From a virus (lineage: Duplodnaviria; Heunggongvirae; Uroviricota; Caudoviricetes): a stretch of DNA of 43,620 nucleotides. Each line of letters starts with the position of its first letter. Position 1 is the first letter of the stretch. Positions 7,196 through 10,979 of the stretch are shown here, in pieces. The notes under the pieces were generated by a model. The model was not told where the DNA came from. It worked only from the letters and a program-made list of their open reading frames with translations, and made no database searches. A program made the translations under genes and the position numbers. The stretch is taken from positions 1 through 43,620 of IMG/VR virus record IMGVR_UViG_3300045988_007060. One strand, given 5' to 3'.

Positions 7196-7822
7196 ATGGG
7201 ACTGAAATTAAATCTACGTAAAGTAAACACTGCATGGGTTAACGTATTCGAACGCGAAAAAGACCGTGAAAACGATGATGGCTCAATCACTAAAGGCCAG
7301 TACAGCGCGACTATTATCCTGCCATCTGACCATGCTCAAATCGATGCGCTCTACGACACTGTTTACGCTGTAGTTGAAGAAGCGTTAGGTGCAGCCGCCG
7401 CCGAGAAATGGATGAAGTCGAACTACGGCGAAGGCAAGCACATGGATAAATGCGCGATTAAAGACATTGCCGAGCGCGACAATCCGTTTGAAGACTTCCC
7501 GGAAGGATTCTACTTCAAAGCGAAGGCACAGAAACAGCCGCTGATTGTAACCTCTAAAAAAGGTGAGACTCAGGTAGAGCAGGACTTCAATGTAGACGGC
7601 GAACAGATTGAAGGTGAACAGGTTTACAGCGGCTGTGTCGCCAACGTAAGCGTTGAAATCTGGTTTAGCCAGAAATATAAAGTCCTCGGCGTTAACCTGC
7701 TGGCAATTAAATACGTCGGCGAAGGTAAAGCGTTCGGCGGTTCTAAAGTTGCTGCAAGCGTTAATGACCTGGAAGACGACGAAGAAGATGGAGCACCGCG
7801 CCGTGAACGTCGTCGCCGTTAA
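7196..7822 (+). CDS. DUF2815-type ssDNA-binding protein
   Basis: Acidic C-terminal tail (DLEDDEEDG) then RRERRRR; conserved position between DUF2800 and PolA. Confidence 0.65.
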   Translation: MGLKLNLRKVNTAWVNVFEREKDRENDDGSITKGQYSATIILPSDHAQIDALYDTVYAVVEEALGAAAAEKWMKSNYGEGKHMDKCAIKDIAERDNPFEDFPEGFYFKAKAQKQPLIVTSKKGETQVEQDFNVDGEQIEGEQVYSGCVANVSVEIWFSQKYKVLGVNLLAIKYVGEGKAFGGSKVAASVNDLEDDEEDGAPRRERRRR

Positions 7823-7842
7823 TATCTGAATCAATTTAACTA

Positions 7843-7864
7843 AGGCCCTTCATTGGGCCTTTTT
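7843..7864 (+). terminator. rho-independent terminator
   Basis: AGGCCC-TTCATT-GGGCCT followed by TTTT. Confidence 0.6.
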
Positions 7865-7883
7865 ACTAAGGGTCGAAAATAAT

Positions 7884-10800
7884 ATGGCTAATTTATTGTA
7901 TCTTGATACCGAAACATTCTCTGAAGCTGACCTAAAGAAAGTAGGGTCATACGCATACGCGGAACACGCAACAACTGAGATTATAATATGTACATACGCC
8001 GTTGATGATGGGCCTGTAGAAGTATGGGATTGCACTTCCGAACCAGTAATGCCAATAAGCCTACGCGTTGCGCTACGTAATGTTATGCGCGGGCGTATGA
8101 GAATTGTAGGCCATAACTTTTTAATGTTCGACAGGCTAGTTATGAAGCACTGCTGGGGTGTGGATATCAAACCGAGAAATACCATCGACACTATGATTCG
8201 AGCGTTTCGTCACGCGCTGCCTGGGTCACTTGATGCGCTGTGCGAAGTGCTGGGCGTATCGGCGGACAATGCAAAAGACAAACGCGGCAAGGCGCTGATT
8301 CAGCGTTTCTCTAAACCGACGCCGAAGAACTACAAAATCCGTCGATACACCGCAGAAACACACCCTGACGAGTGGGCGCTGTTCATCAAGTACGCCGTGA
8401 GCGACATCACCGCGATGCGTGAAGTCTTCCATAAACTGCCGCGTTGGGGTAACTCCGAGTTCGAGGACCGTGTACTGGAGCTGGACCAGTTAATCAATGA
8501 CCGCGGGTTTAAGGTTGACGTCGCACTGGCGGAAGCCGCGATTGAAGCCGTGGAGAAGCACAAGGCACAGTTACAGGAAGAAGCCCAACGAAAATACGGC
8601 GGCTCGCTTACTGGTAAAGACTTCCTTCCGATTCTGCGTGAACTCGCACCCGCGCACCGCATCCATAACGCACAGAAGTCGACACTGAATGACCTGCTGG
8701 CAGACGATGATTTACCCGACGATGCTCGCATGATTATAGAAATGCGCCTCGGGGCCGCGTCCACCGCATCAACGAAATATAACCCACTGCTGTTGGGCCG
8801 CTCTTCTGACGACCGACGCCGCGGTTGCTTGCAGTACGGCGGGGCAAAACGCACTCTGCGATGGGCGGGTAAAGGCTTCCAACCGCAGAACCTCGCGCGC
8901 GGGTACTATCACGATGATGAACTGGATAAAGGCATTTCAGCGTTACTTAAGGGCCGCGCGCACCGCCGTTTTGATGTCGCTAAATTAACGGCATCGACGG
9001 TGCGTAGCTGCATCATACCGGAAGCAGGACATAAGTTTGTTGTTGCCGATTATTCTAACGTTGAGGGCCGAGGGCTTGCGTGGCTTGCAGGCGAAGAAAC
9101 CGCGCTAGATACGTTCCGCGCCGGGCTGGATATTTATTGCGTAACCGCAGGTAAGATGTTTGGCATGGACCCAGACGACATTAAGAAAGAACGTAAAGAC
9201 TTGCGCCAGATTGGTAAAGCGTGCCTTCACCGTCATACCCAAGTTTTGACCGATGGCGGATTTAAGGATATTATGGCGGTTACATCAACAGATAAAGTAT
9301 GGAGCGGTGAAAAATGGGTGAATACAAAAGGCGCGCACCTTATGGGGTGGAAACCGGTAATAAATGTGGACGGGGTGCTAATGACCGAAGACCACAAAAT
9401 CTTGGCGCATTCCTGGAAGCAGGCAAAGCAACTCGCTTCAAACAGATATATGATGGGCCTCGCCCTGGAGAGAGGTATGGACGCTTGGTTATCCTGCGCG
9501 AGTTACCAAAACGACAAGGCCAAAGACAACTACTCGTCCAATGTGATTGCGGGGGGATGCCGGGGCGGGTCTATTATGACAACGTCAGAGCGGGTAAAAC
9601 CACTCAATGCAACCGCTGCGCCCTTGAAGCAACAAAAAAATATCGTAAACAGTATTTCTGCTACGAAGACGCAATGCCGGATGATGCGCACAGAACGCGA
9701 TTACTCAACCGGCTGTCCGCGGCTATCACGCGAACAACAAGCCCCAGGGATAAGGGTTATAAAAACTATGGGGCAAGAGGCATCACGGTATTCGACCAGT
9801 GGAGGACTGATAAAAGGTCTTTTCTTAGATATGTTCAAACTCTGGAAAGCTGGGATGACCCGAACCTCGAAATGGATAGAATCGACACAGACGGTAACTA
9901 CGAACCTGGAAACATTCGGTTTGTCAGCCGTTCTGAAAACTGCCGAAACAGACGGCAAATACCCGAGCTTCAACGAAAGTATGATGCAGCCGTTGCCCGC
10001 ATTGCTGAACTTGAGCGGGAAATTAACCTACTGCGAGCCGGTGTACGACCTGATTGATGTGGAAGACGGCAACCGTTTTCTTATAGCCTCAGACTCTGGC
10101 TTTCTTGTGGCGCATAACTGCGAGCTTGGCCTCGGCTACGAGGGAGGCGTCGGAGCGTTCGTTACGTTCGCTAAAAACTTAGGTCTTGACCTTATTGAGA
10201 TGGCAAAAACAATGGACGGTACATTCCCGGGCCACATATGGGCCGCTACCGCACGCGGGTACGAGTGGGCACGCATCCAGGAAGCAAAGCGGCCACCGCA
10301 TCCAGGTGAAAAGGACGACAGACCATCGTATATTCTGGACAAGAAAGTGTGGCGCACATGTGACGCGATCAAGCGTATGTGGCGCGAGTCACACCCGGAA
10401 ACAGTAGCGTTCTGGCGGGACCTTAAAGACGGAATTTTAGCCGCTGTGCGCAATCCTGGTCGTGAATTTTGGGCGGGAGCACACTTGCGCAAGAATGGCG
10501 AGCGCGCTATCCGAATCTGGAGAACAGTAGAAACCGATTCATCAGGTAGGAAGGTTCCCGGTTGGTGGTTGTGTATGGAGTTGCCGTCAGGCCGTATCCT
10601 CTCGTATCCGGGGATCGGCGTTAGCGTGACAAAAGAAACAGACGAAGACGGACGGGTAAACACGAATGTGCGAATCAAGTACCAAGGTGAAAACCAGTTA
10701 ACCCGCCAATGGACTACCCTGTACACCCACGGCGGCAAAGCCTGTGAAAACATTGTTCAGGCGTTGTGCCGTGATTTACTAGCATATGCGATGATTAATG

Positions 10801-10979
10801 TTGAGGGTGGCGGGTATCCCATCGTGCTTTCGGTACACGATGAACTGGTGTGTGAAACTCCAGATACGCCTGATTACACGGTGGCTGAACTGGAAAAATT
10901 AATGTGTTCGCTGCCTGAGTGGGCTGAGGGGTTCCCGCTTGTAGCGGAAGGTGCGGAGATGAAACGTTATGCTAAGTAA
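7884..10979 (+). CDS. family-A DNA polymerase with 3'-5' exonuclease domain, interrupted by an intein
   Basis: Exo motif LYLDTETFS; motif A VVADYSNVEGRGLAWL; motif B split as RQIGKA / intein / CELGLGYEGG; motif C LSVHDELVCE. Confidence 0.9.
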   Translation: MANLLYLDTETFSEADLKKVGSYAYAEHATTEIIICTYAVDDGPVEVWDCTSEPVMPISLRVALRNVMRGRMRIVGHNFLMFDRLVMKHCWGVDIKPRNTIDTMIRAFRHALPGSLDALCEVLGVSADNAKDKRGKALIQRFSKPTPKNYKIRRYTAETHPDEWALFIKYAVSDITAMREVFHKLPRWGNSEFEDRVLELDQLINDRGFKVDVALAEAAIEAVEKHKAQLQEEAQRKYGGSLTGKDFLPILRELAPAHRIHNAQKSTLNDLLADDDLPDDARMIIEMRLGAASTASTKYNPLLLGRSSDDRRRGCLQYGGAKRTLRWAGKGFQPQNLARGYYHDDELDKGISALLKGRAHRRFDVAKLTASTVRSCIIPEAGHKFVVADYSNVEGRGLAWLAGEETALDTFRAGLDIYCVTAGKMFGMDPDDIKKERKDLRQIGKACLHRHTQVLTDGGFKDIMAVTSTDKVWSGEKWVNTKGAHLMGWKPVINVDGVLMTEDHKILAHSWKQAKQLASNRYMMGLALERGMDAWLSCASYQNDKAKDNYSSNVIAGGCRGGSIMTTSERVKPLNATAAPLKQQKNIVNSISATKTQCRMMRTERDYSTGCPRLSREQQAPGIRVIKTMGQEASRYSTSGGLIKGLFLDMFKLWKAGMTRTSKWIESTQTVTTNLETFGLSAVLKTAETDGKYPSFNESMMQPLPALLNLSGKLTYCEPVYDLIDVEDGNRFLIASDSGFLVAHNCELGLGYEGGVGAFVTFAKNLGLDLIEMAKTMDGTFPGHIWAATARGYEWARIQEAKRPPHPGEKDDRPSYILDKKVWRTCDAIKRMWRESHPETVAFWRDLKDGILAAVRNPGREFWAGAHLRKNGERAIRIWRTVETDSSGRKVPGWWLCMELPSGRILSYPGIGVSVTKETDEDGRVNTNVRIKYQGENQLTRQWTTLYTHGGKACENIVQALCRDLLAYAMINVEGGGYPIVLSVHDELVCETPDTPDYTVAELEKLMCSLPEWAEGFPLVAEGAEMKRYAK
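9222..10118 (+). mobile_element. intein in PolA motif B (299 codons in polymerase frame)
   Basis: Begins CLHRHTQVLTDGG, TxxH block GVLMTEDHKIL, ends VYDLIDVEDGNRFLIASDSGFLVAHN then Cys+1; central part in this frame looks like off-frame sequence. Confidence 0.8.
9314..10057 (+). CDS. HNH homing endonuclease encoded in the -1 frame inside the intein
   Basis: GERYGRLVIL, CDCG..CNRC, DRIDTDGNYEPGNIRFVSRSENCRN; GGAG 9 nt before ATG 9314; true start could be further downstream. Confidence 0.7.
   Translation: MGEYKRRAPYGVETGNKCGRGANDRRPQNLGAFLEAGKATRFKQIYDGPRPGERYGRLVILRELPKRQGQRQLLVQCDCGGMPGRVYYDNVRAGKTTQCNRCALEATKKYRKQYFCYEDAMPDDAHRTRLLNRLSAAITRTTSPRDKGYKNYGARGITVFDQWRTDKRSFLRYVQTLESWDDPNLEMDRIDTDGNYEPGNIRFVSRSENCRNRRQIPELQRKYDAAVARIAELEREINLLRAGVRPD

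Follow-up and report, generated by a model that had tools for sequence, protein, structure and literature searches.

The window analysed here is the whole 43,620-nucleotide (nt) stretch of IMG/VR record IMGVR_UViG_3300045988_007060, the genome of a Jersey-/Kaguna-like siphophage (Guernseyvirinae), and our subject is an insert in its gene for a family A DNA polymerase (PolA). The PolA open reading frame (ORF) is continuous from 7884 to 10979 (1031 residues; like all features given below, on the + strand). Identity of the gene is 93% with its counterpart in Escherichia phage vB-Eco-KMB36 and 87–91% with the genes of Salmonella phages, SETP3 and FSL SP-101 among them. In this ORF, 299 codons split motif B, which is one of the core catalytic motifs in family A polymerases. 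The N-extein (7884–9221) comprises the 3′–5′ exonuclease region and the polymerase up to motif B, matches Pfam DNA_pol_A and DNA_pol_A_exo1, and ends with RQIGKA; the C-extein (10119–10979) starts with the +1 Cys (10119–10121) of CELGLGYEGG, the remainder of the motif. Phages PST-H1 and ZCEC5, which belong to the same genera, have intein-less polymerases of 734 and 733 residues that read RQIGKA-CELGLGYEGG and are colinear with the window flanks. Aligned to these, the 897-nt insert (9222–10118) lies exactly between the Ala and the +1 Cys, which is native to the polymerase; the intein-less insertion-site sequence is CAGATAGGCAAGGCTTGCGAACTGGGCCTC.

In the PolA frame, the insert reads as a predicted class-1 intein of 299 codons (Cys1 to His298-Asn299). 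Its N-terminal splicing region (9222–9463) contains block A (CLHRHTQVLT), the segment WSGEKWV, block B (TEDH, 9384–9395) and SWKQAKQL, and its C-terminal splicing region (10031–10118) contains block F (VYDLIDVEDGNRF, with Asp276 at 10047–10049) and block G (FLVAHN). Between the two lies a 'linker' of ~190 codons (9464–10030), which is stop-free in the PolA frame but unconstrained as a protein; the same bases encode the core of a nuclease in another frame. The nuclease ORF has 247 codons (9314–10057) and lies in the −1 frame (offset +2). Its ATG (9314–9316) takes its A from the end of the intein's Lys31 codon (AAA) and its TG from the start of the intein's Trp32 codon (TGG, 9315–9317), and a TGA at 9308–9310 shuts the nuclease frame immediately upstream. 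A first-pass annotation of the window, made from its letters alone, had described the unbroken PolA ORF, the split of motif B and the 247-codon ORF in the same terms, and the intein-less alleles of PST-H1 and ZCEC5 confirm the insertion point. A search of the window for a second nuclease copy or a further intein found neither.

Intein features and reading frames of the insert

The ends of the insert carry what is expected of a class-1 intein, namely Cys1 and a +1 nucleophile, a block B TxxH, a block F Asp, a terminal His-Asn and an in-frame insertion with colinear intein-less alleles. The canonical ends named in the first-pass annotation (Cys1, T55xxH58, D276, H298-N299 and the +1 Cys) hold up in an alignment of 31 diverse intein-frame translations: C1, T55, H58, D276, G293, H298 and N299 are invariant, and the +1 residue is Cys, or Ser in a few lineages. 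The N-terminal splicing region is conserved in these 31 lineages, whereas the ~190 central columns of the alignment are unconserved. A profile built from the full intein alignment matches almost exclusively inteins among solved structures. When the profile is trimmed to the N- and C-terminal regions, 12 of 14 matches to solved structures are inteins, among them the NEQ068 Nanoarchaeum split polymerase intein (E = 2.7e-5) and the Spl DnaX mini-intein (E = 1.7e-4, positions 2–110 of 115). Similarity to Hint domains, on which the earlier proposal had been made to depend, is thus found at the insert ends. Several GenBank records already label the gene 'intein-containing DNA polymerase precursor', and the SETP3 Pol intein presumably has an entry in InBase. 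As judged from the sequence, the insert ends form a class-1 intein (Hint), and splicing is predicted.

The insert might instead stay in the polymerase as a tolerated, unspliced surface loop. This has been proposed for the methylase insertion of phage ShiLan, a precedent in which an out-of-frame HNH insert lacks a splicing domain (PMC11855218), and splicing of the present insert is itself a prediction from sequence. Unlike the ShiLan insertion, however, the one studied here has all class-1 catalytic residues invariant and resembles solved inteins, and it would leave the two parts of motif B 299 residues apart. An unspliced loop is therefore very unlikely.

The 897-nt insert is found in 166 phage records at 82–99% identity and is near full length in 163 of them. 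None of the 12 distinct sequences from close relatives has a stop in the intein frame, and in every one the nested ORF is intact from its ATG to its stop. Among these 12 sequences, variable sites in the core (9464–10030) number 19, 82 and 42 for intein codon positions 1, 2 and 3, and substitutions therefore concentrate at the third position of the nested frame. The corresponding counts are 6, 2 and 14 for 9222–9313 and 1, 2 and 11 for 10058–10118.

Ratios of nonsynonymous to synonymous substitution rates (dN/dS) were estimated by the Nei-Gojobori method, and the figures for each section refer to comparison with the EP23/SO-1 clade unless a range across comparisons is given. In the core, dN/dS is 0.12–0.13 in the nested frame at a synonymous divergence (dS) of ~0.8 (0.10–0.15 across comparisons, with dS up to 0.86) and 1.15–1.2 in the intein frame (0.67–1.23 across comparisons). 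Over 9222–9403, the intein frame gives 0.06–0.07 (0.06–0.08 in five of seven pairs) and the nested frame ~1.6, and over 10031–10118 the intein frame gives 0.00–0.05. Values for the intein ends in their own frame span 0.00–0.08, with the exception of one comparison (0.25). Both the codon-position and the dN/dS patterns switch frame at ~9450 and ~10030. Thus only the two ends of the insert code for a real protein in the PolA frame, whereas the middle does so in the nested frame. The first ~30 codons of the nested ORF (9314–9403) overlap the N-terminal splicing region and are an unconstrained leader, open in the nuclease frame. A function for the linker peptide in the intein frame was considered and rejected, given its dN/dS of ~1.15 and its lack of conservation. 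The earlier suggestion that both frames are maintained is borne out by the frame-specific dN/dS values and by the integrity of both ORFs, in close relatives as well as in 72 of 74 deep lineages.

To this can be added the absence of stop codons. The nested protein was re-encoded with synonymous codons drawn from the window's own usage, and over the 189-codon core the intein frame was stop-free in 0.4% of trials (P = 0.004; 4.4 stops expected), which we regard as the same order as the rough 1e-3 to 1e-4 of the first-pass annotation. For a GC-rich relative, none of 5000 re-encodings was stop-free in the intein frame. The 77 unique lineages contain no host-frame stop at all; 73 have the offset of the window (median of 5.5 stops expected) and four have the other offset (11.4 expected). 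The remaining, third frame has a median of 14 stops in the 73 lineages and 11.5 in the four. Nuclease homologs that are free-standing or lie at fractured sites (see below) have 13–19 and 17–27 stops in their two alternative frames. Since the re-encoding expectation (~5.5) is well under the free-standing counts (13–19), the nested proteins appear to be adapted at the amino-acid level as well. This suggests that nested nucleases have changed in amino acids so as to avoid host-frame stops, for example, by placing Met, Leu, Ile or Val before codons beginning with A or G. The stop-free intein frame is far beyond what chance would give, and we take it to be selected.

Two further explanations bear on these patterns. 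The first-pass annotation had advised a check for compensating indels near 9450 and 10030, which would make the insert an ordinary in-frame HNH intein. The frame switches do fall where such indels would be needed, and the old SS3e record, which differs from the window by two gaps, has a split polymerase annotation. Nevertheless, the other 14 of 15 aligned relatives are gapless relative to the window, and no compensating indels occur among the 163 independently sequenced records with a near full-length insert. The same layout recurs in all 77 unique lineages, with nuclease identities down to 30% and in differing GC backgrounds. Furthermore, a survey of viral contigs made by nuclease similarity alone, without selection for context, found the nuclease in the intein frame at none of 90 loci. 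The comparative data exclude sequencing or assembly error as the source of the frame switch.

The second explanation is a self-splicing intron of group I with a nuclease ORF. HNH nucleases are common in the introns of phage polymerase genes (I-HmuI, I-BasI and I-TwoI). For Sodalis phage SO-1, the depositors annotated gp38/gp39 in this way: according to GQ502199, the polymerase 'contains type I self-splicing intron', and the nested ORF is given as the gene of that intron. A search of 8900–10500 against Rfam (E up to 1) found neither an intron nor any other RNA family. An intron has no need of an open host frame, yet that frame is open in all 77 unique lineages, and the insert ends evolve as host-frame protein, with third-position substitutions and the low dN/dS given above. 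The invariant intein catalytic residues and the profile matches to solved inteins likewise speak against an intron, which we consider highly improbable.

The nested nuclease and its start site

The nested protein matches phrog_374, an HNH endonuclease family, with E = 9.5e-47, and also PHROG HNH families 3377 and 2081. A weak match to phrog_1035 (E = 1.9e-5) ranks far below the HNH families. Pfam HNH models and NCBIfam gave no match to the nested protein at E up to 1, and Pfam Endonuclease_7 gave none. With the nested nuclease as query, tblastn returned 797 phage records, 634 of which are below 60% identity; many of them are annotated as free-standing HNH endonucleases. The protein collection yielded 291 homologs. 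An invariant CxC...CxxC zinc ribbon (C77, C79, C99 and C102 in the window) characterises the family, and this region matches Pfam CapR in two homologs.

An AlphaFold (AF2) model of the nuclease has a predicted local distance difference test score (pLDDT) of 84.6, with values below 50 for residues 1–20. Following the leader (residues 1–45), the protein is divided into a CapR-like zinc-ribbon beta domain, a helical domain, a beta-beta-alpha nuclease finger and a C-terminal coiled helix. In the model, D188-R189 ends a strand, which is followed by a loop, a second strand and a helix, the topology of beta-beta-alpha-metal nucleases. D188-R189, Y196, N200, N209 and N212, all part of the finger, are invariant in the nuclease family, free-standing members included. 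N200, N209 and N212 would supply the loop Asn and the metal-binding residue of the helix. The position of the catalytic His is taken by the Arg of D188-R189 in 48 of 48 family members, and the canonical His is thus missing. The profile matches and the predicted fold assign the nested protein to the HNH superfamily (His-Me finger) as a non-canonical member. It had been called a complete HNH nuclease; the superfamily is upheld by the PHROG matches and the predicted topology, but 'complete' is not, as the first His is an Arg and the Pfam HNH models are silent.

A mostly viral group of nucleases that includes PacI (group 20) also lacks the catalytic His and has a loop Tyr instead (PMC5714182). In the nested nuclease, the invariant Y196 lies in the loop between the two strands. 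Its structural similarity to PacI is weak, a Foldseek search returned nothing, and the CapR-like zinc-ribbon and helical domains at the N-terminus do not resemble PacI. Membership of the PacI group is thus a lead and not an established assignment. By likeness to PacI, a pattern that Y196 fits, the nuclease may be catalytically competent.

In the 74 unique inteins of the main group, the start site at the conserved Trp reads ATG in 56, GTG in 16, TTG in one and CTG in one; a start codon is present at the homologous Trp site in 73 of 74 lineages. Where the codon before the Trp encodes Glu, Lys or Gln, it ends in A in 41 of 55 cases, compared to 24.3 expected from extein usage. Where it encodes Ser or Ala, it is TCA or GCA in all listed cases, although A-ending codons make up 3–27% of extein usage. 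ORFs that begin at the Trp site are 237–262 residues long in 72 of 74 lineages. The 48-codon leader would be open by chance in ~24% of re-encodings per lineage, and it is open in nearly all 74. The conserved start, the bias toward A, the ORF lengths and the open leader together argue for an independent start of the nuclease at 9314. The first-pass annotation had also noted a ribosome-binding signal, GGAG-N9-ATG. The Shine-Dalgarno-like GGAG is present at 9301–9304 (Trp27-Ser28 codons), 9 nt before the ATG; it is only partly conserved, reading GGAA or GGGA in relatives, and in the family the motif arises from intein Trp-Asp/Ser-Gly codons.

The nuclease could also be produced by programmed −1 ribosomal frameshifting, as a fusion of N-extein, N-intein and nuclease. 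Frameshifting is common in phages, and here the two frames overlap on one messenger RNA (mRNA) and the internal Shine-Dalgarno-like signal is weak. However, a start at one precise site in nearly every lineage, with A favoured in the preceding codon, speaks for initiation, and in the window the nuclease frame is closed by the TGA two codons 5′ of the ATG. A reading of 9310–9463 revealed no X XXY YYZ slippery heptamer. In addition, the other offset found in a sister group (below) would require a +1 shift. We therefore regard frameshift-mediated expression as unlikely.

Mobility, relatives and variants

The artificially spliced junction is matched contiguously in 476 phage records, as against ~166 with the insert, and the intein-less allele is thus common in the same genera. 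The insert is 97–99% identical between phages, whereas the adjacent flanks are 84–91% and the distal polymerase gene 71–92% identical. Between the window and f18SE, for example, identity is 99.1% in the insert, 89–90.5% in the adjacent 200 bp and 70.6% in the distal N-extein. SETP3, AG11 and SP-101 show a similar contrast between insert and flanks, and for SO-1 and EP23 the values are 83% versus 55–71%; locus L036 shows no such contrast. This difference between insert and gene, together with the 476 intein-less records, is what a homing element would be expected to leave as it passes from phage to phage with short co-conversion tracts.

In 87 of the 90 surveyed loci, the nuclease is nested in a longer ORF on the same strand. 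For the 80 best loci (41–99% identity), this holds without exception, and the host ORF is open in another frame and 900–1250 residues long where complete. Homology to both PolA exteins, N and C, is found in nearly all host ORFs, along with an intein that begins C(L/F)..T.VLT..G...LWDG..WV and ends GPLIVHN/C (the slash marks the intein boundary). Contigs of differing base composition, L016 (GC-rich) and L018 (low-GC), share this layout, as do L025, a contig from an NCBI assembly, and the Streptococcus prophage Javan255. A distant subgroup, consisting of L018 (961–3858), L020, L021 and L024 (Javan255), has the motif-B intein with a nuclease of 30–37% identity in the other offset (host = nuclease frame + 2). 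With ~11 stops expected and none found, this subgroup points to independent invasions or to changes of frame by indels. The free-standing homologs in the survey are the most remote ones only (L019, L022 and L023). With respect to origin, invasion by a free-standing nuclease gene fits better than an in-frame HNH-intein ancestor that underwent two frameshifts, because none of the 90 loci is in-frame and the sister group has the other offset.

At four loci (L017, 2429–3190; L063; L065; L103), the nuclease has a single in-frame stop and the intein frame is open. These probably represent early decay of the endonuclease toward a plain mini-intein. They would also fit the view that the insert as a whole is a silent relic, a mini-intein with a junk linker that is inherited vertically and whose nuclease ORF is no longer made into protein but has not yet decayed; the missing catalytic His and the weak ribosome-binding signal point the same way. 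A relic is nevertheless difficult to reconcile with a dN/dS of 0.12 in the nuclease frame at a synonymous divergence of ~0.8, with an ORF that is intact in 72 of 74 unique lineages and a start preserved along with its codon bias, or with Arg, Tyr and Asn residues that are invariant throughout the family, free-standing members included. Moreover, divergence is far lower in the insert than in the gene that hosts it, and the insert is patchily distributed. We consider a silent relic improbable.

Some loci hold more than one intein in the same polymerase gene. In L017 (52–3779) and L081 (2–3393), an upstream 'fractured' intein contains a nuclease of the same family. There, an ORF for the N-terminal part of PolA and of the intein (IntN) comes to a stop, an ORF of the HNH family follows in a second frame, and an ORF in the third frame starts from the C-terminal part of the intein (IntC; ..LVPVYDIRNCGPRRRF..HN/SESINLQNLPRK). 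This third-frame ORF also holds the overprinted motif-B intein, and so the split layout of Dassa et al. (2009) stands beside the overprinted one. Upstream inteins that look split are also present in L100 (190–4627) and L084 (248–4342), with a different intervening nuclease; in L100, 1461–2378 matches phrog_314 'homing endonuclease'. Polymerase ORFs of ~1230–1280 residues in L085 (1451–5137), L091, L069, L074 and L039 contain two inteins, both open in frame. The second of these lies at GGKL/C..LIVHN/CEN..Q and has its own nested ORF in the other offset; the four such ORFs tested (L069 excluded) fall in the same PHROG HNH families, with E down to 1e-57. Within the nine-residue motif B itself, related inteins in loci L026–L105 occupy three registers, each of which supplies its own +1 Cys: GK(A/T/V)/C(E/I/Q)L.LGY as in the window, GK(V/I)A/CLALGY, one residue further on, and GKV.ELA/CG(Y/F).GG, four residues further on and the commonest.

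Existing annotations of such regions disagree. In SO-1 (L108, GQ502199; 1094–4282, 2578–3336), the insert is annotated as a type I self-splicing intron with nested gp39, and in SS3e (NC_006940.2), which has two indels, a split polymerase and an 'HNH endonuclease' are given; most records annotate one long polymerase only. The intein-frame translation, its nonsense middle included, matches phrog_93 'endonuclease' with E = 3e-196. This family appears to have been built partly on the off-frame reading, with a label that belongs to the other frame. Gene callers and databases thus mislabel regions of this kind, as in the SO-1 intron, the SS3e split polymerase and phrog_93.

In phage KMB36, the closest relative (L001, 173–508), an additional annotated 'HNH homing endonuclease' gene overlaps the start of the polymerase gene and represents another mobile nuclease at the edge of the same gene. 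In contrast, the window has only a short gap (~7823–7884) between a DUF2815-like gene (7196–7822) and the polymerase.

Proposed mechanism and comparison with known systems

We consider it probable that the insert is a mobile element of composite nature, in which the central linker of a class-1 mini-intein encodes, in another frame, a separately translated homing endonuclease. This explanation builds on what was observed: the anatomy of the insert, selection that differs by frame, two conserved ORFs with a conserved start for the nuclease, and the signature of horizontal transfer. The first-pass annotation had proposed a mini-intein with its linker overprinted by a nested homing-endonuclease gene, and every test we ran agrees with this.

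In the mechanism that we propose, ribosomes translating PolA would traverse 9222–10118 in frame 0 and produce a 299-residue intein, consisting of a Hint domain (~80 N-terminal and ~30 C-terminal residues) and an unconstrained peptide of ~190 residues at the usual position of the endonuclease domain. Protein splicing by Cys1, the TxxH motif, Asp276, His-Asn and the +1 Cys would excise the intein, rejoin RQIGKA-CELGLGY and restore motif B. On the same mRNA, a minority of ribosomes would initiate at ATG 9314 in the Trp codon, yielding a His-Me-finger nuclease of 247 residues (HNH superfamily, PacI-like). In mixed infections, this nuclease would cut or nick intein-less PolA genes near the motif-B site, and repair would copy the insert in. 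Selection on the polymerase would bar stops in frame 0, and selection for mobility would keep the nuclease in the −1 frame.

Several points count against this explanation. Splicing, internal initiation, and the activity and target of the nuclease are inferred. The lineage counts are phylogenetically non-independent. The Shine-Dalgarno-like motif is weak and unconserved, and its 9-nt spacer is long. The single-sequence structure model of the intein is uninformative (pLDDT 33). The reduced divergence of the insert could in part reflect double constraint, although this would not account for 99% versus 71% identity. Finally, Pfam and NCBIfam scans of both frames and of a mini construct joining the N- and C-terminal regions returned no Hint or HNH model, and Pfam scans of individual members gave only sub-threshold matches to Vint and Hint_2, in 4 of 27. 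The profile searches that the first-pass annotation had called for have therefore given a divided result, with nothing from Pfam and NCBIfam but with inteins matched by the trimmed profile and HNH families by PHROG.

With a good deal less assurance, we lean towards the view that these elements form a large, old and hitherto unrecognised clade of two-gene mobile units, spread over hundreds of phage lineages and with the insert of the window as its type example, in which a mini-intein and a nuclease of free-standing type have co-evolved in two frames. The start built on a Trp codon and the stop-avoiding nuclease would be products of this history. The units would be represented in at least 572 viral contigs, at no fewer than two sites and in three registers of family A polymerases, in both alternative frames, and alongside coexisting free-standing and fractured states.

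The origins of intein endonucleases and of split inteins are old questions, and the arguments about them have for the most part been based on models (Derbyshire & Belfort 1998 and Dassa 2009, as represented in a paper citing them). The present element would be an intermediate that is stable and under selection, in which a free-standing nuclease gene has entered a contiguous intein but has never become fused to it, and the relatives of the element display free-standing, overprinted, decaying and fractured states together. If this is true, they constitute a natural series for the gain of an endonuclease and for the origin of split inteins, in culturable Salmonella and E. coli phages and with each step open to experiment. 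The Jersey- and Kaguna-like host phages are easily grown, and many are candidates for biocontrol or therapy, so splicing through a nonsense linker of 190 residues, internal initiation and homing can all be tested. Recombination is concentrated in the polymerase gene of these phages, a hotspot of relevance to their taxonomy and engineering, and the tolerance of an intein for an arbitrary insert of 190 residues is relevant to intein engineering.

Homing endonucleases encoded out of frame on the same strand within inteins were first reported for actinobacteriophages, where they are endonuclease VII-like, and the authors describe the architecture as previously unreported (Gosselin et al. 2025, bioRxiv 10.1101/2025.01.02.630785). 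The first-pass annotation had not recognised the arrangement as described; the architecture as a class is in fact contained in this preprint, whereas the accessible part of the preprint does not cover the polymerase and HNH family found here. The two cases share an intein that is open in the host frame, an unrecognisable middle, a nuclease ORF in another frame of the same strand and free-standing relatives, and the preprint likewise proposes invasion of an intein by a free-standing endonuclease gene. They differ in the nuclease, which there is endonuclease VII-like (IPR004211) and here has no Pfam Endonuclease_7 match, and in the hosts: actinophages there, but here siphophages of Salmonella and E. 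coli, prophages of Streptococcus and many phages that are uncultured. The invaded genes differ also: the DNA polymerase in the host list of the preprint's survey is the polymerase III alpha subunit, while the element described here is in motif B of a family A polymerase. In the window, the start codon and ~45 leader codons lie inside the splicing domain, with the start on a conserved Trp codon. The sections of the preprint seen contain neither a frame-specific dN/dS nor a stop-avoidance test, both of which are reported here, and the family of the window is far more abundant.

An out-of-frame HNH nuclease in the ShiLan methylase was described by the same group (PMC11855218). Like the element in the window, the ShiLan insertion is stop-free in the host frame, carries an HNH nuclease in another frame with its own start and has a homing-like distribution. 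It has no splicing domain and is thought to be retained, whereas the present nuclease is flanked by a complete intein (PMC11855218). The accessible text of the 2025 preprint and PMC11855218 make no mention of Salmonella, SETP3 or the nuclease family of the window, and the searchable literature yielded no description of this family, its size or its embedded start codon.

The fractured genes of Dassa et al. (Nucleic Acids Research (NAR) 2009, PMC2677866) also combine a mini-intein with an endonuclease gene of free-standing type at the endonuclease insertion point, a state that L017 and L081 show. Unlike the split inteins described there, the intein of the window is contiguous in an unbroken host frame, and splicing in cis is expected. 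The nuclease family that the title of that study presents as new differs from ours, and the 2025 preprint describes the nucleases of Dassa et al. as VSR-like. In canonical bifunctional inteins, such as the LAGLIDADG intein PI-SceI and phage inteins with an in-frame HNH domain (Dalgaard 1997, as represented in a citing paper), Hint is split at the same topological position, and homing likewise targets a conserved site in an essential gene. There, however, the endonuclease is a domain of the intein polypeptide, whereas in the window it would be made as a polypeptide of its own, from another frame, and what the intein contains is a non-functional reading of the same bases. Compared to these systems, we rate as new the nuclease family, the host gene, the phage groups, the abundance of the element, the start and leader embedded in the splicing domain, and the quantitative evidence for selection in two frames.

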